Assembly: GCA_030591725.1 (NCBI GenBank)
Contig: JAUVAN010000001.1
Coordinates: 1 to 54,421, forward strand
Direction: 5' to 3'
Source of the DNA: Deltaproteobacteria bacterium
Lineage (GTDB): Bacteria > Myxococcota_A > Polyangia > JAAYKL01
DNA length: 54,421 nucleotides
Position numbers and translations under genes: made by a program. This document shows positions 2,974 through 38,695 of this stretch, one piece after another. Each line of letters opens with the position of its first letter. The first letter of the stretch is position 1. The notes beneath the pieces were generated by a model, which worked only from the letters and a program-made list of their open reading frames with translations, was not told the origin of the DNA and ran no database searches.

Positions 2974-5900
2974 ATGAAGCGACGTTTGAAGATCATAGGG
3001 AGCGACAGTGTAAAAGGCGGCGGGCCTTCGAAAGGTCCGCCCGTGGAACCCGAGAGTCCGGACAACGACGGATTCTCCATGCATTTTTCCGGCGGGCGCG
3101 GTGTACTGTGCCTCAACGGCGAAAAAATCTCCCCGGCGGTCACAGTGGACCTGTTGGAGATGAACATCCCGCAGATAGCATTTCCGTTTGATGTTTCCAG
3201 AGGTGTAAGAGGTCTTCGGGACCGACGGTTGAAACTGTCGAGGCTGGTGATGACCGTTAGCCTCGAGGGGTTGATGGAGATTCTTGGTACGAAGCTCCGT
3301 GGTCTGGACTGGATCGGCTCGCCCATAATTTCTTTCGAGGAAGATTGCATCAGCGTTCTGCTGGAATACGGTCCCGAAGGATCCCGCATCCCCTTCACTT
3401 TTCGTCTGTTGCCCTCCGGGGAGGAACGCTTGCCGTCTCTCCTGATGGACGAGCCGAGGGCGTACGGCCCGGTCCCCATGTCTCTTCTCCTGGTTGCGGG
3501 AACGGTGCTCCGGGAAGTGACGGGCGCCAGGCTCGAGGGAGTCGGGTTTCGCCCGCCGGATCCCCTGAAGGAGGCGCTGATGGCGATTCTTCCGGGGCGG
3601 GGCTGGCGGCTGCCGGACTACTCCGACGCGGCGCTTGTTCGACTGGATCTCGAGCCGGACCGGGTGGTCCTCGAATTCAACGGGGCCGACCTGCTGCGCG
3701 AGCGTGGCGACGCGGATGTGGGAGAGGTGGGAATGAGCCGCCTTCGAAGGCTGGAGGAGCTGAGGCTCACCCGGGACGGGGACAGGCTGCTGGGGGTCGG
3801 TGAGCTGGAAGAGGCACGCGCGTCCTATGCCCGACTCCTGGACCGGGAGCCGGAAAATCCGGTGGCGGCGGCTCGCCTCGCGATGATCGACGTGATGGAT
3901 CCGCAGATGAGGGATACGGCAAGGGCAGTGGCATCGGATGCGCTGGCCAGGCGGGGTCGCAGGACCGACGTCCTGGCTGTGATCGCTCACGGAGCGGCCC
4001 TGGAGGGAGACGTCGCGGCGGAGGTGAACGCGCTGGAGGCGCTTGAGGAGTCGTCCTTTCCCCTGGAGCGCCTGGCCGCAGGGCTCCGCCTCGGCGAGCT
4101 CGTAAGGAACGAAGATCCCGACCGCGCCATAATGTTCTTCGAGGGGGCTCTCGCCGCCAGACGGGAAGATCCGCGGGCGTTGATTGCTCTCATCGAGACC
4201 GGCGCCGCTGCGGGCAGGAAGGACATGGTCGACCGATTGATCTCCCGGTGGATCGCGGTGCACAGGACTCCTGCAGGCAGGGCCGAGGCTCACGCGAAGA
4301 TCGGTGAGCTCCTCCTTCAGAAACTGGGGGATCCCGCAGCTTCGGTGAAGCACCTGGAGCGCGCGGCCCTCGCGCAGCCTGGCAGCAAAGAGATCATGTG
4401 GGGGTTGGCGCAAGCCCTGGCCGGAGCGCGGGATGATCGCCGAGCCATCTCCAGGTTCGAGCGCCTGGAGAAGATCTCCATCGAGGCGGGAGATCAGGCG
4501 GGAGCGGCTCGAGCCATGGAGGCTATTGGAAAGATATGGATGCGCCGTGGCGAGCCGGAGCTGGCTATCCCACGGTTGCGGGAAGCGCTTGCCGCCTACG
4601 GAGAAACACGGCCGCCGGCGACGATGGTAAATCTGGCTACCGCGCTTGGAGCCCTGGGCCAGTTTGCCGATGCGGCGGATATGTTCGAGGCCGCCCTGTC
4701 GCGAGCGCGGCCGGCGGAAGCAGATTTTTCCTGGGGCGATACCGCGCTGGATCTGGCCCGCATATACTTCGAGGAGCTCGACGACGGGAAGGCTGCAGAG
4801 CAGTGGATCCGTGCGGCCATGAACCTCGAACAGAGCAAAGACTCCGCCGGCGCTCTCATGCGGGACATACTGAAGCGCCAGGGCAGATGGACGGAGTTGA
4901 CCAGATCTCTCGAGCGCGTACTCGTCTCCGAACCGTCCGTCGAGAACGTGCTGGCCCTGAACAGGGCGAGGATCAAGGCTGGCGAGGTGGAGGCGGCGGT
5001 GTCCACCCTGGAGACAGCCCTCGAACGGCACCCCGAGCGGGAGGATCTCCTCGACGCCTTCATCGAGGCGTGCCGTGAGGCTGGAGAGCGATCCCGGCTC
5101 AAGACGATATTGCAAAAGCGTTTCGAGACTTGTACGGAGCCCGCCAGAAGGGCGGCCATGGCCACGGAGATCGGGTCCCTCGAACTGACGGCCTTCGAAA
5201 ATCCGCAGGCCTCCGCACACTGGTTTCGGCAGGCGTTGGAGGATGACCAGAGTATCCTCGAGGCGAGGAAGGGGCTCGTGGACGCACTCGGGAGGCTCGG
5301 CGGTTCCGATGAGATGGAAGTGCAGATAGAGGCCCTCGAGCGCGATCTGTCGGCACTGGGCCGGCGTTCGGACGCGGCCGCCCTGATGGCTCGAAGGGCG
5401 GCGATCCTCGCGAAGGATGGCGAGTCGGGCCGCGCCGCAGACCTGATGAGGAAGGCCCTTCCTGATCTTCCCGGCGAGGACAGGTGCCGGGCGCTCATCG
5501 AGATGGCGACCCTTTACCAGAAGTCAGGAGACCACGCGACCGCGAGGGATCTCTACATCGCTGCAAGGAGAGAGCACGGGGCGGATGAAACGTACGTTGC
5601 CGCCCTCGGCGAGGCCGAGACCGCGCTCGAGATGAAGGATTATCCGGCTGCGCTGGAGGCAGCGACGATAGCGGGTTCAGGCCCGGTCGAGCTTCGAACG
5701 AGGGCTGCAATGGCTGCGGCAAGGTCTCTGGATCATCTGGAGCGGAGCACGGAGGCGGCCCGGATTCTGGAGCGGGTTGCCGAGAATGTCGATGCCCGGG
5801 ATTCCATCGAACTCCTCATGTTGGCGGCGCATATCTACGGGAACAAGGTAGGCGACAACGTAAACGCTCGCGAGATGCTCGAGCGCCTGCTGGAGATCAA

Positions 5901-8433: not shown

Positions 8434-9293
8434 GAGAACAGAGGTTCCCCGGTCTCTCCATTATCGTCACGGAGGATCACGTCTCCCGGTTGATCTGGGC
8501 GCTGCAGGAGTTCGGGGCTACGGCGGTGGAGACAAGAGATGAAACCACGTTGACCTCCGCCGGAAAAGGACGCGTCGTGTTGATCGCCGGGTTTGCGGAT
8601 CCGATTGTCCGGAACCGAGCTTCGGAGGAGCTTCACAAGGAGTGGGGAGGTCTGGAGATCACGGCTTCGGATGTGTCCGACGATGGATGGAGCGCCGGCT
8701 GGAGATCGTTTTTCGAGCCGGTCGTGCTTGCGACCATACAGGTGATCACCCCGTGGATGAATCCGCGCGAGTCCGGCCTGACCACCATCGTGATCGATCC
8801 GGGGCAGGCTTTCGGGACAGGGGGGCACGCCACAACGCGGATGGTGTTGCGAATGCTGGAGTCAAGGGCGATGGAGGGGGTGTTGCCCTCTGAAATGGCG
8901 GATGTGGGCGTGGGTTCGGGGATCCTGTCGATCGCGGCCGTGAAGCTCGGTGTCGAAAAAGTGCTGGGGATCGACATCGAGGAGGAGTCAATGAACGCCA
9001 CGCGGGAAAACGCTGCGGCCAACGGCGTGGAAGGCGCAGTGGAGGTGTATCTGGGAACTCCGCGCGATATCAACGGGGAATGGCCGCTGGTGGTTGCCAA
9101 TATCGATCTTGCGGCCTTTCAACGGCACGCCGGGGATATTGCCGAGATCGTGGCTCCCGGTGGGGAGGTTCTGTTGAGTGGTTTGCTCGTCGATCAGCTG
9201 GAGGAGTGCGTGGGGCTCTGGCCGGGATTCGATCGCGGTGGGGTACTCGAGGACGACGGATGGGCGGCGGTCTCCCTGAGGCGTGTCACATGA
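8430..9293 (+). CDS. prmA: Ribosomal protein L11 methyltransferase
   Basis: 287 aa. Motifs GQAFGTGGHATTRM and the SAM-binding DVGVGSGILSIAA. Conserved pairing with rsmE. Confidence 0.9.
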   Translation: MREQRFPGLSIIVTEDHVSRLIWALQEFGATAVETRDETTLTSAGKGRVVLIAGFADPIVRNRASEELHKEWGGLEITASDVSDDGWSAGWRSFFEPVVLATIQVITPWMNPRESGLTTIVIDPGQAFGTGGHATTRMVLRMLESRAMEGVLPSEMADVGVGSGILSIAAVKLGVEKVLGIDIEEESMNATRENAAANGVEGAVEVYLGTPRDINGEWPLVVANIDLAAFQRHAGDIAEIVAPGGEVLLSGLLVDQLEECVGLWPGFDRGGVLEDDGWAAVSLRRVT

Positions 9294-10009
9294 CGCGGAT
9301 CTTCATCGAACAGGCTCTGAGCGGTCGTGTTGAAGTCAGCATTTCCGGACAGGAGCTGCACTACATCTCCCGTGTCAGGCGTCTCTCACCCGGGGACGAG
9401 GTCGAGCTCCGGGACGGGGAAGGCCGGGGCTTCCTGGCCAGGATCCGGGAGATCTCGAAGGACTCAGCGATCCTCGATATCACGGATGAGACCGAGCTCG
9501 AGCCCGACGAATTCACGGTCCGGCTGATTGTGGCTGTGCCAAAGAGGAATATCTTCGACGACGTTGTTCGCAAGCTCAGTGAGATAGGTGTTGCGCGGAT
9601 ACAGCCGGTGACAACCGAGCGATCGGTCGTCGAGCCGGGAGTCGGTCGCCTGGACAGGTGGCGTCGTATCGCCGCGGAGTCGGTGCGACAGTGCGGGCGG
9701 GGTAAGCCCGTCAGCGTCGAGGATGTTGTGTCTATTGAGCGCGCTCTGCGCGACGCGCCGCAGGGGACCAGGCTCATCCTTCACCCGGAGGGCTCAAAGG
9801 TGTCCCTGGCGGGGGCGCTCGGTGACAATGCGGCCGTTCCGATCACCGTTGCAGTCGGTCCCGAGGGCGGTTTTACGGAGGAAGAGATCGCGCTGGCCGT
9901 CGAACTGGGATTTACACCTGTCGGCGCAGGCAAATTGATCCTCAGAACAGAGACGGCTGCGATTGTGGCGGCTGTGGTATCGGTGGCCTCAACCGGAGGG
10001 TTTGAGTGA
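9290..10009 (+). CDS. rsmE: 16S rRNA (uracil1498-N3)-methyltransferase
   Basis: The start was moved to the ATG at 9290 (MTRIFIEQ...), which overlaps the prmA stop as ATGA. RsmE-like features: RVRRLSPGDEVEL, the C-terminal GPEGGFTEEE, and LGxxILRTETA. Confidence 0.85.
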   Translation: MTRIFIEQALSGRVEVSISGQELHYISRVRRLSPGDEVELRDGEGRGFLARIREISKDSAILDITDETELEPDEFTVRLIVAVPKRNIFDDVVRKLSEIGVARIQPVTTERSVVEPGVGRLDRWRRIAAESVRQCGRGKPVSVEDVVSIERALRDAPQGTRLILHPEGSKVSLAGALGDNAAVPITVAVGPEGGFTEEEIALAVELGFTPVGAGKLILRTETAAIVAAVVSVASTGGFE

Positions 10010-10024
10010 GCGGCTATATGTCAA

Positions 10025-10050
10025 GTGGAGGGTTTTGACTCCACATTTCT
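10025..10050 (+). terminator. Candidate intrinsic terminator after rsmE
   Basis: GTGGAG-ggttttga-CTCCAC (6-bp stem) followed by ATTTCT, 16 nt after the rsmE stop. Confidence 0.4.
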
Positions 10051-10474
10051 CCTGGCATTTCGAAATCGCGACTGGACGTTGCGGGCCAAAAACTGGGAAA
10101 AGAAAATTCTACGAGGCAGAGCCTGCCTTAGGGGCAATGAAAAACACTGCGTGACACTAAACTTTGCATGTAGAGAAAATGGCACTGTCAAAGCGAGCTT
10201 TGTAGATGCCCTGCCGCCGGATAATCTACAAGACGATGTGTTTCGATGGATAAAAAATTTGAAGCAATCATTTCAAAATCAGACATGTGCAACCGATGAC
10301 ATGATGAAATGGGTCTTGCAGCCGTTTGGATTTTCGTACTAACGAAAAGTTTCAGAGGGCTGGCGACGTGACGGGTCCGCCTTCTGACGTTTGTCCTGCT
10401 TCGCTCGCAAGCGAGCTTCGCAGGATGGCACGATCTTGGACTATCGAGGGTCAAACCTTTCGCCATCCGTTTGG

Positions 10475-10510
10475 AAAAAAGCAAGTAGCAAAAAAAGCAA
10501 GTAGCAAAAA
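10475..10510 (+). repeat. Tandem direct repeat, 16-bp period (A-tract + GCAAGTAGCA), two copies
   Basis: aaaaaaGCAAGTAGCAaaaaaaGCAAGTAGCAaaaa ends 29 nt upstream of the ATG at 10539. Confidence 0.9.
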
Positions 10511-10538
10511 GATTTCAGTACTATAAGCTAAAATTTCG

Positions 10539-13214
10539 ATGTCAGCGTTAAGCTCACTATTGGTTCAAGATCTAATCCTGAGCGTTAACCACGTGGAGCA
10601 AATTCTACAGCGTCAGGTGATCTACGGTGGTGACCTCGCCACAAACATTCTGGAGATGAACCTCGTCGATGAGGTAGTCCTCTCAAAATACCTCGGCCGC
10701 GTCGTGAGACTCCCCGTTTTTCCTTCGGAATACTTGCTTTCGACAGAGCCGAGCATCATCGAGAAGTTGCCCTGGAAGGTCGCCAATGAGCGGCGGGTGA
10801 TACCTGTACATATCAAAGACGACGTCGTAACGGTGGTCGCATCCGGCCCTGTTCCCCGGGGAACCCTGGATGAACTTTCCGAGTTGTTCGGAATGAAGGT
10901 CGAGCCGAATCTGGTTCTGGAGTTCCGCCTCGCGATGGCCCTCAATCGTTTTTACGGTATTCCCATGGTGGCCAGGTTGGCCGCGATACAGGCGAAGCTG
11001 GCACCCGAGTTCATGCAGGATCAGCCCTCGCTGGTGCCCGAGCCACCGGCTGATTCCAGTCCGATCGCCTCGACGCCGTCCGAAGACCAGACCACTTCTG
11101 TGGAGGCGGTTGACGAGGCGGAAGGTTGGGGGGAGGTGACCTGCCAGGAGCCCGCGCTGGTGATCGAATCCAAAAACGAGTCACTGCGCCCGGACGAATC
11201 CACCATGAAGTTCATTACCGGTTCAAGGGAGAGCACCCGGAAGGTCGTGGAGCTGGGTCATGCCTTTGATACGACCAGGCAAACCAGGAAACTCAAAAAG
11301 GACAAGCCTGTCTCGGCGCCCCCGAAGATCAGTTTCTCAAGGGCGACGGAGTTGTTGGAGGTTGCCAAGGGTCGGGACGAAATACTGGATATTTTCTTCT
11401 CCTTCGCGAGCCAGGCCTTCGAGTTCACCGCGTTGCTGCTGGTTCACGGCAAGATCGCGGAGGGACGAACGCTGGTTTTCAGGGGAAAAGAGCCGGAGCC
11501 GGCGGGTCATGTCCGTGTGTCGCTCGATCAGGATGGAATGTTTCAGAATGTCTTCGAAACCCAGGGGTTCCATCTCGGGCCCGCCGGGATTACGCAGGCC
11601 GACGTGGATCTGCTCTCCTTGCTCCGGCGCGATGCGCCCAAGAGCTGTGCGGTTATACCTATTTTTCTGCGCGGACGTGTGATCCTCATGCTTTATGGAG
11701 ATTCCGGCCAGCGGGGTGTTCGAGCCAACAGGATCACCAGGATCGCCGATTTCGGAAGGGTGGTGGGGCAGGCCTTCGAGAGGATTCTGCTGAAGCAGAA
11801 GTACAGCCAATACGAAAAGACCAGTACCTCCGATGATGGCAAGGTTCCGGCAGCCTCCGTCAAGGTGGAGCCTCGCAAGAAGGATTTTTCCGGATGGGCG
11901 AGCAGCACAAGCGCAGCCGACATCAAAAGTGAGCCGGAAAAGAGCGAGCCGGAGAAGAACGAGCCGGAAAAGAGCGAGCCGGAAAAGAGCGAGCCGGAAA
12001 AAGCGGTGGTCATGATAGCGCCCGCCAAGATGATCTCTGCCCCCACCGAGCCGGCGGGGCTGATTCCTCTGGCCGAGCGAACCACCGAGGCGCCTCTTGC
12101 GATAAACAATATTGCGCCTGTTTCTGCGCCGCCCGATCCCGATCTGGTGAAGAGGGTGGAAGTGATCGATTCCAGGAATGTAGTTCCTGCGGGGCTCGCC
12201 TCCGAAGACCCCATGCGGTTCGAGGAGCCCAAAAAAGTGCTGGACGTGGAGACGGTTCCCATCGAACAGCCCAAGCTGGTGGTCGATGTTACGAGCTTTC
12301 CGTCGCCCCTTCCCTCGTCCGTTCAGGTGGACATGCAGGAAGAGGTGGACAGACTGGTGGAGCGAGTGCTCTCGCTGGGAACTTTCGATGAGGTCGCCGC
12401 CGGGCTGCTTGTCGGGATCGGTGACGACGCCCTGCGTGTCCTTATCAAGCAATTTCCAGGACCGTTGAACTTCGATCGCTACCAGGGGACCAGCAAGTTG
12501 CGGTTGGTGGGCCAGCACGGTCCGTTGCTGCGGACGATGTTGATGTTCGGGAGATCCACCACGGCGCATTTGCTGCCGTTGCTGGACAGCCTGGATTCCG
12601 AGGTGCGTTTTTACACGGTGTTCCTGCTGACGGAGATCTCCATGCCCGAGGCGTTGTCCGGTCTGGCAAAGCGGATCTTCGACAACGACAGGCAGATCAG
12701 GGCCCTGGCCATCGATGCGATGAAAGGGCTTGCGTCTTTCCCCGAATACCGCTGGGCTGTCGTGGACGTGGCCTCGGTTTTGACGAGTTCTACGTCCACT
12801 CTCGAGAAGAAAAGGTTGGCGGCGGAGGCCCTCGGTGAGCTTCGCGATCCGGTGTCGATTCCGTCGCTGTCCGAGATGCTCGGTTCTGTTGACGGTGTTC
12901 TCGCGGAGCGATGTCAGAGATCTCTTGTAAATATCACGTTCACCGATTTCGGTTTTTCCGAGCGGCGATGGCTATCCTGGTGGCAGGCCAACAAGCGCAA
13001 GCATCGCATCGAGTGGGCCGTGGGCGCGCTCAATCACCGGGTCGAGGATATCAGGCGGGCGGCGCTGGAAGATCTGCACAAGATGGTCGATGGAGCTGTC
13101 GAGTGGCCCAGGGAGCCGCTCGATCACAAGCAGCGCCGAGAGTTGAAGAGAAGGTGCCTTCAATGGTGGGAGCGCGAGGGGCGCGCCCTGAATCAGGTAG
13201 TGGAAGTTGATTGA
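10539..13214 (+). CDS. 891-aa multidomain protein: T2SSE_N/MshEN-like N-domain, GAF-like core, (S/N)EPEK repeat linker, C-terminal HEAT-like repeats
   Basis: The N-terminal 140 aa have the MshEN/GspE-N pattern (two 24-aa hydrophobic heptad-like motifs 5 aa apart, then VIPVHIKDDVVTVVAS). Residues about 270-410 look GAF-like (AVIPIFLRGRVILMLYGD). The C-terminus has HEAT-type ALGELRDPVSIPSL. Confidence 0.8.
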   Translation: MSALSSLLVQDLILSVNHVEQILQRQVIYGGDLATNILEMNLVDEVVLSKYLGRVVRLPVFPSEYLLSTEPSIIEKLPWKVANERRVIPVHIKDDVVTVVASGPVPRGTLDELSELFGMKVEPNLVLEFRLAMALNRFYGIPMVARLAAIQAKLAPEFMQDQPSLVPEPPADSSPIASTPSEDQTTSVEAVDEAEGWGEVTCQEPALVIESKNESLRPDESTMKFITGSRESTRKVVELGHAFDTTRQTRKLKKDKPVSAPPKISFSRATELLEVAKGRDEILDIFFSFASQAFEFTALLLVHGKIAEGRTLVFRGKEPEPAGHVRVSLDQDGMFQNVFETQGFHLGPAGITQADVDLLSLLRRDAPKSCAVIPIFLRGRVILMLYGDSGQRGVRANRITRIADFGRVVGQAFERILLKQKYSQYEKTSTSDDGKVPAASVKVEPRKKDFSGWASSTSAADIKSEPEKSEPEKNEPEKSEPEKSEPEKAVVMIAPAKMISAPTEPAGLIPLAERTTEAPLAINNIAPVSAPPDPDLVKRVEVIDSRNVVPAGLASEDPMRFEEPKKVLDVETVPIEQPKLVVDVTSFPSPLPSSVQVDMQEEVDRLVERVLSLGTFDEVAAGLLVGIGDDALRVLIKQFPGPLNFDRYQGTSKLRLVGQHGPLLRTMLMFGRSTTAHLLPLLDSLDSEVRFYTVFLLTEISMPEALSGLAKRIFDNDRQIRALAIDAMKGLASFPEYRWAVVDVASVLTSSTSTLEKKRLAAEALGELRDPVSIPSLSEMLGSVDGVLAERCQRSLVNITFTDFGFSERRWLSWWQANKRKHRIEWAVGALNHRVEDIRRAALEDLHKMVDGAVEWPREPLDHKQRRELKRRCLQWWEREGRALNQVVEVD
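11928..12002 (+). repeat. 15-bp tandem repeat x5 encoding (S/N)EPEK
   Basis: AGTGAGCCGGAAAAG-type units encoding SEPEK SEPEK NEPEK SEPEK SEPEK, in frame within the 891-aa ORF. Confidence 0.95.
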
Positions 13215-16200
13215 GGAAATGAACGCCGTTCCTGACAGCGATGTGGCTGGATATTGGGCAGGGATCGTCTCCTGGCTCGCGAGGGAGTTGGAGACGGCGG
13301 ATGATCCGCAGGTTACTTCGCGCCTGAGGCACGCCCTTTTCAGGGTGCTCTTCGATCGTCAGGACAGGGCACGGGAGGCCGCGCAGCAGATCGATGCCGC
13401 TCTCCAGATGGAGAGCCAGTCGGCGGATATTGTATGGGACGCGTTGCGTGCGTCGACCGGCCGGGACTCCCGGACACAGGTCGAGGCCCTCGAAAGGTTG
13501 ATCCTGTTCCTGGATCGGCCCGGAGACATTGTCGCATGTCACCTGGATATTGCGCACATGAGGCAGCGGTTGCTCGACGATTCGCAAGGGGCTCGGATTT
13601 GCATGGAGGCGGCAAGGCTGGCCGATCCCGAGAACCGAGGAATCCTCTGGAGAGATCTCATCGACGCTCTCGCCTCGGATGATGATCCCGGTTTGTTGTC
13701 CTGCCTGGAGGCCATGGCAAAAGTAACCACGGATCCCGTGTGGGAGTCGACTCTCCTTGTTGAGCAGATCGTGGTTCGCAGGAGGATGGGAGACGAGGAC
13801 CAGGAACTCTCTGAGTTATTGAACCGCATTCTCGATCTTCCCGATCCCTGCTGGACGTCGGTGAACGAGGTGTTCAGGGTGAGCGGCGAACTGAGCAGCT
13901 GGGACGTGCATGTGCGCGCCCTTGAGATAATGGTGAGAGTAGCCCTCGAACCGGTCCCCGAGCCCGTATCTGGGAGGCCGGCCGGTCACGTCTTTGACGG
14001 TTTCGGCAGGGGAGAGCGATATGCCGCCGGTTTCTACTGGCTCCTTTCGGTCGTGAAGGAGCGCAGGCTGAACGACCCTGACGGAGCATTCGAGGCGCTG
14101 AATCACGCGCTTGAGCTTTTTCCGGACAATAACTTCCTGGCGATGGAGCGCGCACGGTTGCTACAGGTGATGGGCCGTTTCAATGAAGCGCTGGACGCCA
14201 TTCCCTACGGTGCTTCCGATGTATGGAAGGCGGAGATCGCGCTCGCTTCGGGCAGGAAAGACCTCGTGGCAGACTTCATCAGGGAAGTTGCGCGCATCGG
14301 GTCTTCCCTGTTGTACGGAGTGTTGGTGGAGATTGCCGGTGAGGGGAAAGGCAGGACGGACGAAGATGTCGATCCAAGGGATCCTGCCAGGTGGCTTCTC
14401 GCCAACCCCGCACATCCCAGAGCGCCTGACGTTGCCGCAAAGCTGATCGAGTCTGATGAGTATCTACCTGTGGCAGGCCTGATAGTTCAGGAATCAATGG
14501 ATCAGGGCGTCCGGTGGCCCACCGATGAGGACCGTCAGTTCGGCGAGAGCTGGGCGAAGGTTGTGGATGTAGTGACGGGGCCGAGACGAGGCGAATCATC
14601 CGCGTATCTCGATTGGGCGGACACCGTCGAGTCGCCCGACTTCGAGGCCGATCTGACGGCGATAGCGGCGCTGGCGGCGGAAGATAAAGGTGATCTGGAA
14701 AGGGCTCTCCAATTATGCGCCAACGCGAGGGAGAACCTGTCGGATTCTTCCGGCGTTGACAGGCAGATTGCCCGCCTGCTTCGTCGCATGGGCAAGTGGC
14801 GGGATCTGGTGGAGCATCTGGCGGTCGTATCAGCGGAGTCGGAGAATCCGGACAATAGCATTGCGGCGCTCCACGAACGCTCCATGGTTCTGGAGTTTGT
14901 GCTCAAGGAACCGGCGGCGGTTGCCGATAGCCTGCAAGAGCTCATTTCCCAGGATCCGGAGAATGTCCCGGTCCTGTGGTCCATGGTTCGTGTTGCCACG
15001 CGGCTGCTCGACTGGAACCAGGTTCTGGATCACCTGCGGAGTGTCGCTCAGGTGATGCCGGACGAGCGAGGAAGGCTGGATCTGCTTTGCGGTGAGATCA
15101 GTCTCTTTGCGCTCGGTGGAAGCGATGATGCAATCGCTTATCTTCAGAGCGCAAAAGGGAGTCTGAGTGGCCCGTTGTGCCGGACAGCGCAGTTGTATCT
15201 GGACCTGGCTTATCACTCCAGGGGAGATGTTCAGCCGCTGGTGCAGCTACTGGAAGAGCAACTCTCGCAGGGGGACGTCGGGCTTGTGGACCTGTGGTTT
15301 TGTGAGCTGCTCGAGTCGAGCCGCGCTACCAGCGGAAACGCGGCGCTAGCCCAGATCCTCGATAACGACCGGATACCCGAGGCGATCAGCAAACTGTGGA
15401 GTGTCATTCTCGGTGACGATTCGCGGCGCCCGTCAGGCGCTCAGGAGAGTTTCGCTGCGTTGACGTCTGTCCCCGGAGCCGTGGCCGGCGCCTGCAAGAT
15501 CGCTTCGGTGTTGCTGGACAAAGATATGAACGCCGGCGCCAAATTGGAGGAGACCGATCTCGAAGCGCCGGAGGCTCTCTGGCTCATGGCGGATCGTCTT
15601 TCCGACGACGCGGATCCGGATCATCGAATCGACATTTACGCGAAGTGTGTTGCGCTCACGCAAGGCGAAGATCTCGATGAATGGGCCGATTGGATTCTTT
15701 GCCTGGCCCAGGCGTATGAGGACAAGGAAGATCTCGAGGCTGCGGTCTCGAGCTTGAAGAAGGGTCTGGAGAAGCATCCGGATCACCCGGGACTCATGGA
15801 GTCACTGGCGCGCGTGGCGTTCGACGCGAAGCTGTTCCAGGATTCGGCGGACGCTCATGAGAAGCTGGCGGGTTACTACGCGTCCCCGCATGAAAAGGCG
15901 ACCCAGCTTGCCAGGGCCGCAACCATATTGCTCACACATCTCGATGATCCCAGGGGAGCCGAGGTAATCGCCCGTGAAGCGGTCAAACGTTCCGCCAATC
16001 ACGACGCGGCACACGAGATCCTCACGGTCATCCTGCGCGAGCAGCGCGATGACGATGCGCTCGTGCAGCAAATAGAGGAGAGGATCGGCGCCGAGCAGGA
16101 TGTGGACACCCTGGTGGAGTTGTACGAGGAGCAGGCGGACAGATTTTTCGCTGTGGACGACATGGAGGGGGCCCTCGACGCGGTGGAGAAGATACTGGAT

Positions 16201-17736
16201 CTCAAGCCAGATCACCTCACCTCAGACCGTACCAAGATCGATCTCCTGTTGGGCAACAAGGAGTTCGAGGATGCCGTTGGGACGATGATGGAGTTCACGT
16301 TCATCTGCGAGGATCCGGCGGAGAAGCGTTCAATGGTCTGGCGGGCAGCCGATGTGCTGTATGAAGATCAGGATGACCCACAGCAGGCGATCGAGGTGTT
16401 GACCGATCTCCTGAAAGAAGGTGACCGGCACCCACAGACCGAGCGACACATAGCAAAGATCGCGGGCGACAAGGGAATGTGGGATGAGGCCACGCAGGCC
16501 CTTTCGAGACTTGCCAATATGGTTACCGACCCTGAAAAAAGGGCGGAGGTCTTGACTGAACAGGCAAGGATTTTACTCGAGAAGATGTTCGATACCGACG
16601 CCGCGTCGGAGGTCATCGACAGTGCGTTGCAGGCCAATCCGTCCGCCGTGGATGCGATAAAGCTGACCCTGGAGTTCCGGGACGAGTCGGACGCCCAGCG
16701 GGTCCTCCACACGGCGCAGAAAAATCTGACAGGCAAGATCGATGAAAACCCCGTTGATCTGAAATCCATCACCGACCTCAAGGTGGTATCGAACCTTCTC
16801 AATGATGAGAATCAGGCTGCGATTTGCAGCGAAGGAATGGTGGTTCTACGCGGATCTCCCATGGAAAAGGGAGTTTCTTTTGCGTACGTGCCAGAGGAGC
16901 CCCCCGATCCTTCCGTGTTGATGAAGATGCTCAGGCACGATGGCGAGCAAGGTCAACCGGTTGCCGACATTGCCCTCATCGCTGCTCCGGTGACTGCTGA
17001 GGTGTACGCGCGTTCCGGACACATTCCGGATTTCGGTCGCTCGACCCTGGCGAGGAAGAAGAGCGCCGATCCGGTACTGGAATGGCTCCTGCCATGGGCA
17101 ACCGTGCTTGGAGTCAAGAAGTTCGAAGTTCATCGGGTGGGTCAGGATCCCCGAGGATCCAGACCTCTTCCGGCGTCGATCCCGGCCGTGGCGGTCAACG
17201 GCGATTTCTCCAACCTCGATCTCATCAGCGCGCGCTTCTTCATCGCACGGAACTTCTGGCGTTCCATGTTTGGATTGGGCTCCTTCGAGGAGGGTGACAC
17301 CGCGACGCCGATTCGATGGTTTCTGGCGCTCACCGCCGCGACACTAGGGGAGGATGCGAACCTGCCGATTTCCACGGATATGGACCTGGTTGTCAAGGCC
17401 AGGAAGGCGCTGTCCAGGAAGATACGCAAGGAACTGGTCGCTCCGTGCACCGCGCTCTTGTCCTGTAGTGCCATGGAGATTCGTACATGGGTGGCGGCGA
17501 CGTCCTTCTCGGCGGACAGGTTCGGTTTGCTGGCGGCGGGCGATCTTTCAGAGGTCATTCCCCTGATGGTAGAGGAATCGGCAGGCCCGCCAGGGTTGAG
17601 ACGACTTGCCGAGAATGCGAGCGATGCACTCTCGAAGGTACCCAGATGCACGGAGTTGATGAGATTTGCGCTTTGTGGCCCATACCTGGAGACGAGACGA
17701 ATTATCGGGTTGAGCGAGGTGAGCAACAGTGGATAG
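13207..17736 (+). CDS. Giant (1509 aa) helical-repeat (TPR-like) protein with a C-terminal non-repeat domain of about 260 aa
   Basis: Uninterrupted ORF. The TTG at 13207 overlaps the upstream stop by 8 nt; an alternative ATG lies at 13219. No enzymatic motif found. The C-domain is paralogous to that of the next gene. Confidence 0.85.
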   Translation: MIEEMNAVPDSDVAGYWAGIVSWLARELETADDPQVTSRLRHALFRVLFDRQDRAREAAQQIDAALQMESQSADIVWDALRASTGRDSRTQVEALERLILFLDRPGDIVACHLDIAHMRQRLLDDSQGARICMEAARLADPENRGILWRDLIDALASDDDPGLLSCLEAMAKVTTDPVWESTLLVEQIVVRRRMGDEDQELSELLNRILDLPDPCWTSVNEVFRVSGELSSWDVHVRALEIMVRVALEPVPEPVSGRPAGHVFDGFGRGERYAAGFYWLLSVVKERRLNDPDGAFEALNHALELFPDNNFLAMERARLLQVMGRFNEALDAIPYGASDVWKAEIALASGRKDLVADFIREVARIGSSLLYGVLVEIAGEGKGRTDEDVDPRDPARWLLANPAHPRAPDVAAKLIESDEYLPVAGLIVQESMDQGVRWPTDEDRQFGESWAKVVDVVTGPRRGESSAYLDWADTVESPDFEADLTAIAALAAEDKGDLERALQLCANARENLSDSSGVDRQIARLLRRMGKWRDLVEHLAVVSAESENPDNSIAALHERSMVLEFVLKEPAAVADSLQELISQDPENVPVLWSMVRVATRLLDWNQVLDHLRSVAQVMPDERGRLDLLCGEISLFALGGSDDAIAYLQSAKGSLSGPLCRTAQLYLDLAYHSRGDVQPLVQLLEEQLSQGDVGLVDLWFCELLESSRATSGNAALAQILDNDRIPEAISKLWSVILGDDSRRPSGAQESFAALTSVPGAVAGACKIASVLLDKDMNAGAKLEETDLEAPEALWLMADRLSDDADPDHRIDIYAKCVALTQGEDLDEWADWILCLAQAYEDKEDLEAAVSSLKKGLEKHPDHPGLMESLARVAFDAKLFQDSADAHEKLAGYYASPHEKATQLARAATILLTHLDDPRGAEVIAREAVKRSANHDAAHEILTVILREQRDDDALVQQIEERIGAEQDVDTLVELYEEQADRFFAVDDMEGALDAVEKILDLKPDHLTSDRTKIDLLLGNKEFEDAVGTMMEFTFICEDPAEKRSMVWRAADVLYEDQDDPQQAIEVLTDLLKEGDRHPQTERHIAKIAGDKGMWDEATQALSRLANMVTDPEKRAEVLTEQARILLEKMFDTDAASEVIDSALQANPSAVDAIKLTLEFRDESDAQRVLHTAQKNLTGKIDENPVDLKSITDLKVVSNLLNDENQAAICSEGMVVLRGSPMEKGVSFAYVPEEPPDPSVLMKMLRHDGEQGQPVADIALIAAPVTAEVYARSGHIPDFGRSTLARKKSADPVLEWLLPWATVLGVKKFEVHRVGQDPRGSRPLPASIPAVAVNGDFSNLDLISARFFIARNFWRSMFGLGSFEEGDTATPIRWFLALTAATLGEDANLPISTDMDLVVKARKALSRKIRKELVAPCTALLSCSAMEIRTWVAATSFSADRFGLLAAGDLSEVIPLMVEESAGPPGLRRLAENASDALSKVPRCTELMRFALCGPYLETRRIIGLSEVSNSG

Positions 17737-20700
17737 AAACGGCACAGAGACCCCGACCTCCACGATTCTGCGGCAATCGGAGTTCTTTTCTACGATCGCC
17801 ACCATCGGTGTGTATGGAGAGCCGCCGACGCGGCTCGTGGAAATGGACGCGGACTCCGAAGAGGTATCGGACTATGTGCGTGGGAGAGTGGGAGCCCTGG
17901 TCGAGAACGCGAAGCTGAACGCCGAAAAATTGCCCGAGATCGCGGCCGGTTGTCTTCACCAGGCGGGTCGCTTTCTCGACAACAAGGCGAAGAGGCCGTC
18001 GGAGGCGTGGAGATGTCATGGGGGCGCCCTTACGATTCTGCCGGGGTATCGTCCGGCTCTGGCAGCCATGCGGCGTCTGGCCCGACGCGGCGGGGAGTCC
18101 GATAAGCTGGGAGTGGCGCTCAATGCCTGCATCGAGGTACCCGGCTTGCCGGCGGAAACAGTCACTTCGCTTTGCGAAAAAAGTGTAGTGGATCTCAAGT
18201 CGGGCAGCGACGCGAGCACTCTTGATTCTCTTCGGGAGGCCGTGCGCGTATCCCCCGACTCCATTCTCCCGCACCTGCTCAAGCTCGGGCCGGCCGCAAG
18301 GGAGGGTGATGACCACGAATTGATCGAGTCTCTCCACGCGGTGGCTGATCGCTGTCCTGACCAGAGAGTATCAATTGTGGCGCGGATGGCTCTGGTTCTC
18401 GTGGAAGAGCGTCTCGGAAACCTGGATGCGGCCCTGGAGCGCCTCGCGGAGATAGAGCCGGACGAGCAAAACAAGACGGCGCTGGCGTGGCTCAAGGTGA
18501 GACTGCAGATCCGGACGGGGGCTCTCGACGAGGCAGCGAGGACTCTCGGAGATCTTCGCGACGGATCCGGTTCTGAAGAGTTTTCCCTGGCCGTCGATCG
18601 AATCAGGAAGGCGATCAATGCGCTGTCGCTCGGTGAGCGGGAGACTGATGGGTCTACCGTGGATTCTTCGTGGGATATCGATTTACTTTGCCGTTGGAAG
18701 AGCGACGATTTTGGGGCGGAGGTGAAGGCGGCAGGGGCAGCGGTGGACTTTGTGTCGTCCGATACGATGAAGGCGGCGCTTTTCGAGAACACCCTCCTGG
18801 CTGCGATCGACGACGATTCAGGGGCGGAAAAGATACCGAAGGACGTGGATCGAAGCACACCTCGGGGGAGGGCTCTCGCGCTGGCCCTTCGAGAGGTCGA
18901 CAAGGACGACGCGACGGCGCTGCTCGCCGATCCGGAGGTCGACCCGCTGGGTTGTCTCCATGCAGCCCTCACTCATGGTGAGGACGCCGTGGTGATCAAC
19001 GCGCTTGAAGCCCTTGGAAGCAAGGCGGAGGGGGAGACGGATCGTTGGGATATCCTGGTAGCCAGGGCGGCTGTCATGCGCGACGCCGGAACCGAGCCGG
19101 TAAAAGCGCTGGAGGTCCTCAAAAACGAGGCGAACCGGATTCACAAGAGGCCCCTGGCCTCGCTCGTCAGGCTTCACGACCGGACTCCCGAAAGCCTCGC
19201 TTCACTCGCACTCTCACAGGCGGGTGACGTGAAGAACCCGGACGAAAAGGCCGATATGCTGTCCTTTGCAGCAACTCATTTTGAGAAGTTCGACCCGGCC
19301 CGGGCAGCCGAGCTTCATCGCGAGGCGTTATCATTGTGCCCCACTTGCCTCATGGCGCTGTTCGCGCTCGAGCGGGAGGGTAGTGATCATTCCAGCATAG
19401 CTATTGCCCTGGCTGCGGCAGCCGAGTCCTCCATTGACGAGAGGGATCGAGCGGTGAGCTTTGTCAAGTCCGGCGTGCACCACCTCGCTTCAGGGGTGAC
19501 GTCGCGGGCGCTTGAGTCGTTTATAAAGGCCCTCAAAGTGGCTCCCGGGGACGAGGAGCTGCGTGACTCGATTCTCCGTCTGGCGGCGTGTCATCCGGAT
19601 CTCCTGGAAGACATGGACTTGCTACAACCGCAGGATCTCGAGAATTTCTCACTGGAAAGAGTGCTGTCTCTTGGGGCGTTGGCGTTCGGCCTGGACGCGG
19701 TTGCGGCGACCAGGTTGTTTGGAAAAGCGATCGAGATAGATCCAGAAGACCCGGTAGCGGTGGTGGGTTTCACCGAGTCGGCACTGAAGAGTGGCCGCAA
19801 GAGCGAGGAATCCAGCCGATTGTTGTCGCTTCTGCGAGATGCCTCGTCGCCCCAGGAGGAGGCGTGGGTCTACCTCAGGATCGCACAGGTGGATGAGCGT
19901 TATGGCCAAGATGTGGGCGCTGCGATGTTGTCCCTCATGACGCTGGAGGAGAAGCTGCCGGGCCACAGGCCCACCCTCGGTCGACTCGCCATGTATTACG
20001 CAAGGCAAAAGCGGTTACAAGATCTGACCTGGGTCGTCCATGCCCTGTCGAACAGCCTGAACGACGATGAAGATGCGGCCTGTGCGGCAATGGTCGCATG
20101 GCGGGAGTCGATGGTCGACATCGAGCCGCTCAAGATTGCAGTATCGCGACAACCGACTTCGGTTCTCCATCTGGCCTATCTGGAGGCGCGCACCGGGGAT
20201 AAGGGGGAGCAGCGTGCTTGCCTCGAGAGCATTGTTCGACAACTTGGTGAATCGGTTGTGCACGTGTCTCGACTTGCCGACCTCCTCGAAGAGGGCGGCG
20301 AGGCACAAGCGGCATTGGAGTTGCGGAGACAGGCTCTGGAAAACAGCCCCGACTCACTTCTCGATCTCCTGGGCATAGAGCGGATCCAGGAGCGCGAGCA
20401 GGATTATCCGGCATTGATCGAGACCCTGATCCGGATCGCGGGCACCAGCAAGGTAAAGGAATTCCAGATTGCAAAGCTCCTTTTCGCCGCCCGGTTGGCC
20501 CAGGAGCAGATGAATGATCCACAGCGGGCGGCCAGGCTCTGCCTCGAGGTGTTGCAAAAGGATCCGGTCAACGAGGAAGCATTTGATCGCGGAAAGGCGA
20601 TCCTCGAAAATGTGGGGGATTCGATCATGATGGGCCGGTTCCTTTCTGCGAGAGTAGAAGGGGTGACCGACCCGGCGCGGAAGCATCAACTGCTTATCGA

Positions 20701-22270
20701 TATAGCCAATACTCGGTTGAGCAACGATGACAGGGAGGGCGCCAAGTCGAGCCTGGCGCAAGCGCTCGAACTCTTTCCATCGGATCTGGAAACCCACAGG
20801 TGGATGGCTTCCTTGCGAATGCAGGACGAGGAGTGGGAGGAGGCGATACACCACCTGATGGAGGCCGCGAAGAACGTCAAGGATCCGGAGACGGGGATGG
20901 AGGTGTTCTACGATCTTGGTGTGCTGTACATGGATCGGAGCGAGAGAAAGGACCTTGCGGAGAAGAGCTTTGTCAAGGTGCTGGGGTGGAGCCGCGATCA
21001 TTTCCTCGCCATGGAGCGATTGGGCGTGCTCTACATGTCGATAGGAAACTGGGGCCGCGCCGCGCAGGCGCTCGAGCGCGTCATCATGCTGGCGACGGAA
21101 ACGGAGATCAAGACAGCCAAGATGGTTGATCTGGCGCACGTCCTGGAAACCAATCTGAACAGGTCCAAGGACGCGGAGAGGGTTCTTTCCGAAGCGCGGC
21201 GAATCGATCCGTTGGACATCAGACCGGTGGAATATCTGGCGGGGATGTATACGCGGCAAAAAGACCCCATGGCCCTGAACGTTCTGCTGGATCAGGCGCT
21301 CACCACGCAAGCCTCGGCGATTGTCAAGAACCCGGACAACGGCGTTTTCTATTCCAACATGCTCTTCTTGTTGGCCCTGAAGTCGCAGGATGAGGTCGCG
21401 TCGCTGGCGGCGGCAGCCATGCGTATAGTCGGCGCCGAGCCGACGGAGCATTCAAAAACTGCGTCCGTGGAAAGCACATGGGAACTGGGAGCGAGGATAA
21501 GCGACCCGGTTGTAGAGGGGTACATCTGCCCCAAACACGTGCCCATCGGGATGAGGGCGACACTCCAGGCTGTCGAGGAACCCGTGGCAAAACTCTTCGG
21601 GTTCAGCGCCAAGCAGTTGGGGCTTGGTCGCGATGCTCGCGTGGACCGAAAGCTTCCGTTGCCCATGGCGATTGCCGAGCTGGCAACCACTTTTGGAATC
21701 AAACCCGAACCCGTAGTTTATGCGGGCGACGACAACGATATCCGTGTCATACCAGGATCTCCCTTCGCGGTGGTCGTGCCGACACATGTGGTCGGGTCCA
21801 CCGAGGATAACGTTGTCAGATTTGCAGCTACCTTTGCCGTGACGTCCATCAGGTGGGGAATTTCCCTCGCCACGATTCTCACGGAGCAGCAGCTACAGCA
21901 GGCCATCGGCGGCCTGGTCAGGTTGTTCGTTCCGGATTTCGCACCGACCGGCATGGACCCCTCCGTTCTTGTGAGCGTTTCGCAGAACCTCGATAAGGTT
22001 CTGACGGCGAAGATCAAGACGATCGTTCAGCCTTTTGCGTTCGACTGCGCCAGGGTGGTGGAAGTGGGCGATGTTCGCGAGAATATAGTCACCATGAGCC
22101 ACCGTGCCGGATTCCTGTCCACCGGTTCGCTCACGGGGTCCGTCGAGGCGCTTCGTGCAATTACCGGTAATCCGTCGGCGACGCTCGCTCAGTTGCCGGT
22201 GGTGGGTCGCATGATGGCATTCATCTTCAGCAAGGATCATCTGGAGCTGCGCAAGCGGATGGGCATCTAG
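17729..22270 (+). CDS. Giant (1513 aa) helical-repeat (TPR-like) protein with a paralogous C-terminal domain
   Basis: Uninterrupted ORF. The GTG at 17729 overlaps the upstream stop (17734-17736); an alternative ATG lies at 17843. TPR-like segments are present (for example WEEAIHHLMEAAKNVKDPE, GNWGRAAQALERVI). Confidence 0.85.
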   Translation: MDRNGTETPTSTILRQSEFFSTIATIGVYGEPPTRLVEMDADSEEVSDYVRGRVGALVENAKLNAEKLPEIAAGCLHQAGRFLDNKAKRPSEAWRCHGGALTILPGYRPALAAMRRLARRGGESDKLGVALNACIEVPGLPAETVTSLCEKSVVDLKSGSDASTLDSLREAVRVSPDSILPHLLKLGPAAREGDDHELIESLHAVADRCPDQRVSIVARMALVLVEERLGNLDAALERLAEIEPDEQNKTALAWLKVRLQIRTGALDEAARTLGDLRDGSGSEEFSLAVDRIRKAINALSLGERETDGSTVDSSWDIDLLCRWKSDDFGAEVKAAGAAVDFVSSDTMKAALFENTLLAAIDDDSGAEKIPKDVDRSTPRGRALALALREVDKDDATALLADPEVDPLGCLHAALTHGEDAVVINALEALGSKAEGETDRWDILVARAAVMRDAGTEPVKALEVLKNEANRIHKRPLASLVRLHDRTPESLASLALSQAGDVKNPDEKADMLSFAATHFEKFDPARAAELHREALSLCPTCLMALFALEREGSDHSSIAIALAAAAESSIDERDRAVSFVKSGVHHLASGVTSRALESFIKALKVAPGDEELRDSILRLAACHPDLLEDMDLLQPQDLENFSLERVLSLGALAFGLDAVAATRLFGKAIEIDPEDPVAVVGFTESALKSGRKSEESSRLLSLLRDASSPQEEAWVYLRIAQVDERYGQDVGAAMLSLMTLEEKLPGHRPTLGRLAMYYARQKRLQDLTWVVHALSNSLNDDEDAACAAMVAWRESMVDIEPLKIAVSRQPTSVLHLAYLEARTGDKGEQRACLESIVRQLGESVVHVSRLADLLEEGGEAQAALELRRQALENSPDSLLDLLGIERIQEREQDYPALIETLIRIAGTSKVKEFQIAKLLFAARLAQEQMNDPQRAARLCLEVLQKDPVNEEAFDRGKAILENVGDSIMMGRFLSARVEGVTDPARKHQLLIDIANTRLSNDDREGAKSSLAQALELFPSDLETHRWMASLRMQDEEWEEAIHHLMEAAKNVKDPETGMEVFYDLGVLYMDRSERKDLAEKSFVKVLGWSRDHFLAMERLGVLYMSIGNWGRAAQALERVIMLATETEIKTAKMVDLAHVLETNLNRSKDAERVLSEARRIDPLDIRPVEYLAGMYTRQKDPMALNVLLDQALTTQASAIVKNPDNGVFYSNMLFLLALKSQDEVASLAAAAMRIVGAEPTEHSKTASVESTWELGARISDPVVEGYICPKHVPIGMRATLQAVEEPVAKLFGFSAKQLGLGRDARVDRKLPLPMAIAELATTFGIKPEPVVYAGDDNDIRVIPGSPFAVVVPTHVVGSTEDNVVRFAATFAVTSIRWGISLATILTEQQLQQAIGGLVRLFVPDFAPTGMDPSVLVSVSQNLDKVLTAKIKTIVQPFAFDCARVVEVGDVRENIVTMSHRAGFLSTGSLTGSVEALRAITGNPSATLAQLPVVGRMMAFIFSKDHLELRKRMGI

Positions 22271-22293: not shown

Positions 22294-22848
22294 ATGCGCA
22301 TCGGAGTATTCGGCGGCACGTTCGATCCACCACACATGGGACACCTGGAGCTTGCCTCGATCGCCCTGGAGTCGGGTCTTATCGACCGGGTCATGTTCGT
22401 GCCGTGTTTGAGGCATGCGCTTGGAAAAACCCCTGCCGGGTTCGAGCATCGGTTTGCCATGTGCAAGGCGCTCGTGGGAGGTAAGGACAACATGGAGGCG
22501 TCGGACATCGAGAGCAGGTTGGATACAGGGGGAAGGACACTGGATCTCCTGAACGCGCTTGGGCATGAGTTTTCCGATGGCAATCTGCGCCTGCTTGCGG
22601 GGACCGACATCTATCACGAGCGCGATCGCTGGTATCGGTTCGATGAGGTGGCCCGGCTCGCGCCGCCCATTTACGTCGAGCGGCTCGGAGCGGACCCCAT
22701 CCCCCACAAGACGTTGGCGGCGCCGCGCATGGTAAGCTCGCGCGAGATTCGAAGGGTCGTCTCGGAAGGGCGCGTCCCGAAGGAGTGGATCACCGAGGCC
22801 GTTGCGGCGTATATCACACGGCATCACCTGTATGGGTACGGGACATGA
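22294..22848 (+). CDS. nadD: Nicotinate-nucleotide adenylyltransferase
   Basis: MRIGVFGGTFDPPHMGHL (the (H/T)xGH motif). 184 aa. AAGGAG SD upstream. Confidence 0.9.
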   Translation: MRIGVFGGTFDPPHMGHLELASIALESGLIDRVMFVPCLRHALGKTPAGFEHRFAMCKALVGGKDNMEASDIESRLDTGGRTLDLLNALGHEFSDGNLRLLAGTDIYHERDRWYRFDEVARLAPPIYVERLGADPIPHKTLAAPRMVSSREIRRVVSEGRVPKEWITEAVAAYITRHHLYGYGT

Positions 22849-23723
22849 ACGACAGAGTTTTCATCATCGGTTGCGGAGCTGTGGGCGCTTCACTGGCCGG
22901 CGCGATTTCACAGACCGGCCTCCGCATATCCGGGGTGTTCGACCTGCGTGAAGATCGCTCCACAGAGTTGGCCTTGCAGATCGGTGGCTCGGCCCATTTC
23001 GGGGCGCTGCCGGAGATAACGGCCCACGCACGAATTGTCATCGTCGCCGTGCCGGATGGGTCGATAGGTGACGTGGCCGCGCGGGCGGCGGCGGATGGGA
23101 TCTGTTCGAGAGATCAGGTCTGGCTGCACTGTTCGGGGCAGTTCGGCGCGGATGCCCTCGCGCCCCTCGATGATCTGGTAGCTGGAACGGGAACGCTGCA
23201 CCCGGCGCTGGTCTTTCCCCCAGGCGCCGTCCGGGAAATACCTTTCGGAACGCACTTCGCCGTCGACGGAAACAATCGGGCGGTCGCGGCTGCGCAAGAA
23301 CTGGCGGAGCTTCTGCGAGGTTCATCGGTAGTAGTTCCGGCCGGTGCGCGACCGGGTTATCACGCGGCAACGGTGATTGCCAGCAACTATGTGGTGACGC
23401 TTATGGCCGAGGCGAGGAAGATCCTCGAGGCCCAGGGAATGGACGCCGATGTGGCGCAGAGCCTGCTGACGAATCTGACATCCAGCGCGGTGGAGGCCGC
23501 GTCGGCAAGGGGAATAGAGGCTTCCCTGAGCGGACCCGTCAGGCGGGGTGATACGGACACCGTCGAGCGGCACATCGATGCCCTCTCATCACTTCCCAAA
23601 ACCGGGGAACTGTATCGATTTTTGGGAGCGCGGACGATCGACCTGGTCCGGTCTCTCGCAGAACTCGATCCCGAAAAGATCCGCGAGATGGAGAACAAAT
23701 TGGGGTCAAAACCCTCCACTTGA
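22845..23723 (+). CDS. Rossmann-like / DUF2520 domain oxidoreductase-like protein
   Basis: The ATG at 22845 overlaps the nadD stop (ATGA). N-terminal IIGCGAVGASLA dinucleotide fold; C-terminal HAATVIASNY ... LSGPVRRGD pattern typical of DUF2520. Confidence 0.7.
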   Translation: MNDRVFIIGCGAVGASLAGAISQTGLRISGVFDLREDRSTELALQIGGSAHFGALPEITAHARIVIVAVPDGSIGDVAARAAADGICSRDQVWLHCSGQFGADALAPLDDLVAGTGTLHPALVFPPGAVREIPFGTHFAVDGNNRAVAAAQELAELLRGSSVVVPAGARPGYHAATVIASNYVVTLMAEARKILEAQGMDADVAQSLLTNLTSSAVEAASARGIEASLSGPVRRGDTDTVERHIDALSSLPKTGELYRFLGARTIDLVRSLAELDPEKIREMENKLGSKPST

Positions 23724-38665: not shown

Positions 38666-38695
38666 CGTCGGCGCAAACAGGAAGAGGGAAATCGA

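Follow-up and report, generated by a model that had tools for sequence, protein, structure and literature searches.

A predicted FrgA-family protein encoded with two giant TPR proteins in a Polyangia-like bacterium: a possible signalling or scaffolding module

FrgA of Myxococcus xanthus has reportedly been known genetically since 2000. FrgA mutants show swarming and aggregation defects, the transposon-sequencing (Tn-seq) pattern of the gene resembles that of the frz genes, and the protein is present in an MglA proximity-labelling set; it is still being recovered in such screens, with no mechanism assigned. Its architecture has been given as MshEN - UNK - HEAT (MXAN_1130; Wang et al. 2016, Supplementary Table 4), and it is listed separately from the M. 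xanthus proteins that retain the cyclic di-GMP (c-di-GMP) motif; frgB (MXAN_1129) encodes a histidine kinase and frgC (MXAN_1128) an NtrC-type regulator. One table (PMC2129111) gives "FrgA" as MXAN_3225, polysaccharide export, which disagrees with the MXAN_1130 of two further sources and with the numbering of frgB and frgC, and thus is probably a naming slip. Here we analysed a stretch of 54,421 nucleotides (nt), the whole of which we call the window, from Deltaproteobacteria bacterium assembly GCA_030591725.1 (contig JAUVAN010000001.1, positions 1–54,421, forward strand); the host, Polyangia-like and uncultured, belongs to the Myxococcota. Three focal genes, A, B and C, occupy 10539–22270 on the + strand. 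A encodes a predicted member of the FrgA family, and B and C encode giant TPR proteins that end in a common C-terminal domain (CT). We infer, with a probability of about 0.45, that together they specify a cytoplasmic, non-enzymatic signalling or scaffolding module in which a B/C heteromer works with a FrgA-type sensor or adaptor.

A preliminary description of the window had reported three consecutive + strand open reading frames (ORFs) at 10539–13214, 13207–17736 and 17729–22270, all of which are present. The genes and their domains are as follows.

10539–13214, + strand: gene A, predicted FrgA-family protein (MshEN-like, GAF, linker, HEAT), 891 amino acids (aa), ATG start (ORF list, Pfam, homologue alignments)
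10539–11006, + strand: MshEN-like four-helix / PilB-N-terminal-like domain, A residues 1–156 (Pfam MshEN, PDB PilB N-terminus)
11328–11813, + strand: GAF domain, A residues 264–425 (PDB profile match, AlphaFold2, Foldseek)
11931–12005, + strand: (SEPEK)5-coding stretch of the disordered A linker, made up of 5.1 copies of a 15-nt tandem repeat (repeat search)
12321–13211, + strand: HEAT-repeat, Trp-rich C-terminal module, A residues 595–891 (Pfam HEAT_2, dense invariant columns)
13219–17736, + strand: gene B, giant TPR-CT protein of the B type, ~1505 aa when counted from the conserved Met (the alternative TTG at 13207 gives 1509 aa)
16738–17712, + strand: CT domain of B (CT hidden Markov model (HMM), 245.8 bits)
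17729–22270, + strand: gene C, giant TPR-CT protein of the C type, 1513 aa, GTG start (ORF, Pfam, paralogy with B)
21317–22267, + strand: CT domain of C (CT HMM, 357 bits; AlphaFold2 predicted local distance difference test (pLDDT) 92.8)

Is A a relative of FrgA? No named system had been found for any of the three genes in the preliminary description; for A, and for A only, we found a named and genetically characterised relative. The connection runs through P0071, a homologue of A (L-numbers denote comparison loci and P-numbers homologue proteins). The N-terminus of P0071 shares 61% identity with residues 1–74 of FrgA (E = 1.6e-25), and its gene has rsmE on the 5' side and a HisKA histidine kinase gene on the 3' side that overlaps it by 4 nt, as in frgA-frgB; P0071 is a probable orthologue of FrgA. 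A and P0071 are colinear over three modules, with 28% identity in the N-terminal module (E = 9e-13), 25% in the GAF module (E = 7e-16) and 28% in the HEAT module (E = 7e-25). Both lie 3' of rsmE, which was found directly 5' of A in 11 loci, the window and 10 further ones. This three-module colinearity, the P0071–FrgA N-terminal identity and the rsmE/kinase synteny together argue, at the level of sequence, that A belongs to the FrgA family and is probably the positional counterpart of FrgA. Like FrgA, A combines an MshEN domain, a middle domain (here a GAF domain) and HEAT repeats and stands outside the motif-retaining set. It differs in being only 25–28% identical to the FrgA-like P0071, and its clade has two giant TPR-CT proteins on the 3' side instead of FrgB and FrgC. 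Accordingly, no histidine kinase or bacterial enhancer-binding protein (bEBP) gene lies near A in the window, where B, C and nadD are the next genes and a frgB/frgC-type linkage is absent; such linkage was found for P0071 (a HisKA kinase) and in part for A homologues in Sandaracinaceae loci (a bEBP). Pattern scans of metagenomes for FrgA peptides returned 0 matches.

The N-terminal module of A scores 36.6 bits with Pfam MshEN (PF05157; cut-off 23.1) and matches PilB N-terminal structures in the PDB (E = 6e-6). The c-di-GMP motif published for MshEN domains consists of tandem 24-residue units, RLGxx(L/V/I)(L/V/I)xxG(L/V/I)(L/V/I)xxxxLxxxLxxQ, separated by a 5-residue spacer (Wang et al.). A keeps two 24-residue helical motifs, a 5-residue spacer (VIYGG) and the hydrophobic positions, and the key Arg/Gly/Gln are replaced by A/S/L in motif I and by D/A/V in motif II. 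Among 25 A orthologues, a strict motif was found in 0, a single relaxed match in 1/25 and the tandem pair in 0/25, and A scores 13 bits with the NCBIfam c-di-GMP_motif model, whose cut-off is 38. Wang et al. point out that c-di-GMP binding by MshEN domains does not in every case depend on a perfect motif. Since the MshEN-like region is nearly invariant across orthologues though the motif is lost, it is evidently constrained by a different role. A therefore resembles MshE and PilB/PilF in an MshEN domain above the Pfam cut-off and in the layout of the motif, and differs from them in having neither the key motif residues nor an ATPase domain. A regulatory role in type IV pilus function or type II secretion would fit the PilB match, the swarming defects of FrgA mutants and a prepilin peptidase gene found 5' of A in L003; we hold it to be highly improbable given the missing ATPase domain, the lost c-di-GMP motif and the lack of pil or gsp genes in the window, and the pilD neighbour was seen in that one locus only.

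The middle region of A, previously described as a GAF-like core, is a genuine GAF domain as judged from structure and profile matches taken together: a profile of residues 264–434 matches the GAF structure 3oov (E = 0.004), the AlphaFold2 model of the region has a pLDDT of 92, and a Foldseek search of the PDB with this model gave 287 matches at E<=1e-3 with TM-scores up to 0.7. Among the matches listed, 50/50 were GAF domains or GAF-containing proteins, all with probability 1.00; the Pfam GAF model has no match in A. The fold match thus places A beside GAF sensors such as cyclic nucleotide-binding phosphodiesterases, sigma-54 activators and chemoreceptors, with the difference that the output module at its C-terminus consists of HEAT repeats and is neither an enzyme nor a DNA-binding domain. 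In an alignment of the 25 orthologues, three conserved modules are separated by linkers that cannot be aligned between orthologues, including the one that carries the SEPEK repeat, and the HEAT/Trp-rich module is the best conserved. The preliminary reading of A as degenerate MshEN plus GAF plus HEAT is thus borne out by Pfam, by the 3oov profile match and by AlphaFold2 and Foldseek. A literature search for a combination of MshEN, GAF and HEAT found none. Proteins of 350–400 aa that consist of the MshEN-like and GAF-like modules of A only were also seen (L042 9989–11062, L049 9962–11023, L034, L038, L051–L053, L055, L056 and L058), in metagenome-assembled genomes (MAGs) labelled Nitrospirota, "Proteobacteria"/Pseudomonadota or "bacterium"; their genes lie directly 3' of tatA/B-tatC in 2/2 loci checked.

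B and C each contain a TPR solenoid of ~1200 aa, recognised by Pfam, followed by the non-TPR CT of ~320 aa, as had been described. They share 22% identity over ~690 aa, CT included, and by this measure are ancient paralogues. Both are highly acidic; the net charge is about -107 for B and about -60 for C. A motif scan of A, B and C found no Walker A, HExxH or HxxEH motif and no transmembrane segment, which upholds the earlier statement on the first two of these motifs. Myxobacterial TPR scaffolds of motility and polarity, such as SgmX, GltD/GltE and Tgl/PilW/PilF, resemble B and C in being large TPR proteins of myxobacteria, and B and C moreover adjoin a gene of the motility-associated FrgA type; the similarity is at the TPR level only, with no match over the CT. 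Likewise, NCBIfam returned for B and C only TPR models below their cut-offs and none over the CT (score/cut-off: GltE 26/225, PilW 40/154, PrsT 91/312, LapB 47/363).

The preliminary description had called the C-terminal domain private to these two proteins, which it is not. A CT profile search of 1.84 billion representatives recovered 6230 proteins with E<=1e-3, of which 1969 reached E<=1e-30, counted as cluster representatives at 50% identity. Among the matches listed, the CT is at the C-terminus in 150/150, most of these proteins being 1500–2450 aa long; the short matches are fragments on ~1-kb contigs. Source names, where given, are Polyangia, Sandaracinaceae, other Myxococcota MAGs or broader labels. 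In some giant TPR homologues of C, a Ser/Thr kinase domain is fused at the N-terminus (P0114, P0130, P0133, P0138, P0141, P0145 and P0174), and the CT was confirmed in four of them (P0130, P0133, P0141 and P0145).

What is the fold of the CT? Pfam found nothing, and no peptidase family, in 24 CT domains, and a CT profile matched nothing among PDB sequences. The AlphaFold2 model has an alpha/beta plus helical architecture, with a helix, three strands, a further helix and a helical bundle; the sole invariant residue, F170, lies in a conserved RFxxxRAL stretch on the helix that follows the three strands. A Foldseek search of the PDB with this model found no significant neighbour (best E 0.11). 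The weak matches are led by M48/M56 zincins (BepA 6ait/6sar, BlaR1 8exs, Ste24 4il3 and selecase 4qhi; E 0.1–4, TM 0.16–0.35, root-mean-square deviation >10 Å). TPRs and an M48 domain are a known combination. The CT could therefore be read as a degenerate M48/M56-like zincin, a pseudo-protease, in which case B and C would be TPR-guided adaptors for substrate capture or quality control that follow a BepA-like logic. This would accord with the confident CT model having these metallopeptidases as its top, non-significant, PDB neighbours, and with its order of elements (helix, three strands, helix with F170, helical bundle), which we take to be that of a zincin core. We nevertheless consider the pseudo-protease reading improbable: the Foldseek matches are all non-significant, with the E-values, TM-scores and deviations just given, there is no HExxH or HxxEH and no Pfam or PDB sequence match to the CT even by profile, and B and C have no signal peptide, unlike BepA. 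B and C resemble BepA in joining TPRs to a domain with M48/M56 zincins as its nearest, non-significant, structural neighbours and differ from it in the reversed domain order (CT at the C-terminus), the cytoplasmic location, a size 3–5 times larger and the paired occurrence. M48 peptidases sought among the comparison loci were not found. A degenerate zincin fold for the CT, which comes from the modelled structure, is a lead only.

Across the comparison loci, the backbone order of the genes is TPR1819-prmA-rsmE-[A]-[B-C]-nadD-DUF2520, where TPR1819 is a 1819-aa TPR protein and prmA-rsmE precede A in 11–16 loci. In ~15 loci, with proteins 35–90% identical, an A homologue is followed at once (4 nt or an overlap) by a B homologue, and C is found wherever the contig extends far enough: the order A-B-C was seen in L002, L006, L007, L008, L012–L015 and on the contig of P0013, and is truncated at a contig end in L009, L010 and L019. 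Tandem pairs of a B-type and a C-type gene, both with the CT, also occur in five distant lineages (L059/L060, L061, L062, L063 and L064); the two genes overlap or abut in L059/L060, L061 and L062 and have one small gene between them in L063 and L064. The B-type/C-type tandem was thus present in 6/6 lineages examined, contiguous and usually coupled in 4 and with one small gene between in 2. In a CT tree, all C-type copies form one clade apart from the B-type copies. This separation across lineages indicates that the duplication predates these lineages, and the tandem order, the tight coupling and the retention of two CT types suggest that B and C are non-redundant partners.

Other genes recur beside the pairs. 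Histidine-utilisation genes, for the aromatic lyase HutH and/or urocanase, were seen in four distant lineages (L059 2715–4265, L061 1573–4847, L063 4800–6437, L064 2327–3874); where present, hutH adjoins the B/C pair or is one small gene away. A protein of 198–207 aa with no Pfam match, 42% identical between lineages, is encoded between the C-type giant and nadD (L059 16736–17332, L064 13471–14094) and is absent from the window. Ser/Thr kinase genes lie beside B/C pairs (L061 18347–22097, L062 14882–16381) and beside solo A genes (L024, L026, L031 and L035), and in the Sandaracinaceae and Polyangiales loci A adjoins Ser/Thr kinases and a sigma-54 activator.

How might the three proteins work together? 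In the module that we propose, B and C would form a hetero-oligomeric platform on which A may dock via its HEAT module. The GAF domain of A would bind a small ligand and so make the assembly ligand-responsive, and the degenerate MshEN domain could serve as a protein-interaction module or as a non-canonical ligand module. The output would be the recruitment or organisation of signalling clients rather than catalysis, probably linked to Ser/Thr-kinase regulation and to FrgA-type regulation of motility or polarity. The partner downstream of A would then differ by lineage: FrgBC, a kinase with a bEBP, or B/C.

Several observations weigh against such a module. In genomes rich in kinases, the proximity of kinase genes could be coincidental. 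The A–FrgA link rests on a 74-residue fragment of FrgA together with the intermediate homologue P0071, and with the A N-terminal profile this fragment scores only 13–17 bits, below MXAN_4436 and MXAN_2924; FrgA itself is known only genetically. In L003 (6976–9828) and L011 (12429–15809), B is shorter (~950–1130 aa) and has no CT, and C keeps it. Finally, the genes occur apart: (i) A is directly followed by nadD, with no B/C, in L016–L018, L020 and L021; (ii) the A genes of Sorangium, Sandaracinaceae and Polyangiales have no B/C beside them; and (iii) no A lies upstream of the B/C pairs in the five distant lineages, where nadD follows the pair in L059/L060 and L064. Points (i) to (iii), together with a prmA-rsmE-A synteny much wider than the A-B-C triad, would be expected if A and B/C had independent functions and were merely adjacent, in one clade, within an old housekeeping string (prmA-rsmE ... 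nadD-DUF2520). We consider such neighbourhood without partnership the main alternative, if a less likely one than the module: the tight adjacency of A and B holds in ~15 loci at 35–90% identity, with C wherever the contig extends, and the A-nadD and B-C-nadD adjacencies are most simply derived from an ancestral A-B-C-nadD order followed by losses, which on this comparison of gene orders appears to be the simplest history. Thus, of the co-conservation that would have been expected from the preliminary description, the A-B adjacency stands across ~15 loci, and A is without B/C in many lineages and B/C without A in five. The candidate scaffold system with a GAF/MshEN input that it had put forward agrees with our reading of non-enzymatic, tightly coupled repeat proteins; the three genes are, as a set, separable.

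Going beyond the proposed module, the B/C pairs could represent a new class of cytoplasmic signalling hub widespread in Polyangia, whose catalytically dead zincin-like CT, with a conserved Arg/Arg/Ser/Phe constellation, would read Ser/Thr-kinase signals or bind peptides, and which would here connect to a FrgA-type GAF sensor and so replace FrgBC. This is a long shot; if true, it would for the first time open the FrgA branch of motility and aggregation control in myxobacteria to biochemistry.

The domain types MshEN, GAF, HEAT and TPR and the named relative of A are already known; the novelty lies in the CT family, in the pairing of the giants and in the way in which these are coupled to a FrgA-type protein. 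For the FrgA family, the "unknown" middle domain becomes a GAF domain, the MshEN motif is systematically degenerate in a region that is highly conserved, and the downstream partners are seen to be swapped by lineage among FrgBC, a Ser/Thr kinase with a bEBP, and giant TPR-CT pairs. These three features give rise to testable hypotheses on what FrgA-type proteins connect to. The CT, with >6,000 clusters lacking a Pfam annotation, a C-terminal position in all matches listed, mostly on giant TPR proteins, and ancient paralogous pairs in the five lineages checked, is an obvious candidate for domain curation and for structural study. Practical impact is limited, the hosts being uncultured and the function inferred only.

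Overlaps of 8 nt had been proposed at both junctions of the three genes, and this stands for B/C: GTG 17729 overlaps the stop TAG 17734–17736 by 8 nt, GAGG lies 9 nt before this GTG, and it is the sole listed start codon (ATG/GTG/TTG) 5' of the block conserved among orthologues. For A/B, an 8-nt overlap with the A stop (TGA 13212–13214) requires a start at TTG 13207. A conserved Met in 8/8 aligned B orthologues corresponds to ATG 13219, so the A/B junction is most likely a 4-nt gap, and coupling is still tight. On the 3' side, nadD starts at ATG 22294, 23 nt past the C stop, as had been stated; in relatives, C and nadD overlap by 4 nt and nadD is translationally coupled to C. The neighbouring genes are listed here.

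2974–8433, + strand: 1819-aa TPR protein (Pfam: TPR only; last 4 nt shared with the start of prmA)
8430–9293, + strand: prmA, ribosomal protein L11 methyltransferase (Pfam PrmA E 5e-50; 5' of A in 16 loci)
9080–10009, + strand: rsmE, 16S rRNA methyltransferase (coordinates of the ORF, true start probably near 9300; Pfam PUA_4 and Methyltrans_RNA)
10010–10538, no strand: AT-rich spacer between rsmE and A (alignment with L006 and L007)
10475–10506, no strand: perfect 16-nt tandem duplication, AAAAAAGCAAGTAGCA x2, at the 3' edge of an insert in the spacer; single copy in relatives (alignment, repeat search)
22294–22848, + strand: nadD-like cytidylyltransferase, conserved 3' neighbour (Pfam, synteny)
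22785–23723, + strand: DUF2520 / Rossmann-like protein, conserved after nadD (Pfam, synteny)

The 1819-aa TPR gene also lies 5' of prmA in L006, L007, L012, L014, L017 and L021, the B/C-less clade included. We rejected it as a third paralogue of B and C: the CT HMM has no match in the protein, which has no CT, and the similarity is at the TPR level only.

The AT-rich spacer of 530 bp at 10010–10538 is present as described, and had been read, together with the short gap to nadD, as a sign of one transcription unit. In the closest relatives, L006 and L007 (83–89% protein identity), ~470 nt of AT-rich sequence (roughly 10026–10490) are absent and A begins ~65 nt after rsmE; the last ~50 nt of the spacer are a conserved leader of A common to these relatives. 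The spacer is thus specific to the window genome and not a conserved operon boundary, and A-B-C may be co-transcribed with prmA-rsmE in relatives. A mobile element as the source of the ~470-nt insert gained no support: Rfam does not match the insert, inverted repeats are absent, and none of its ORFs is convincing. Rfam searches of the window and of the spacer found no RNA family, and a promoter/terminator scan gave counts not above those of shuffled sequence.

The remainder of the window is housekeeping (dprA, topA, xerC, hslVU, dnaK and the dcw cluster), and PADLOC gave no match to a defence-system model, apart from a 13-bit one at the TPR level. These surroundings and the lack of PADLOC membership indicate a core chromosomal feature, neither a mobile nor a defence element. 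Anti-phage defence, or a STAND NTPase with a TPR sensor, was rejected on the same grounds and by the absent Walker A motif. Giant repeat proteins take up ~17.2 of the 54.4 kb, in line with the earlier estimate of about 17 of 54 kb. At 37253–40519, directly 5' of dnaK (Hsp70), the window also encodes a DnaJ-domain protein with C-terminal TPRs that is unrelated to A, B and C.

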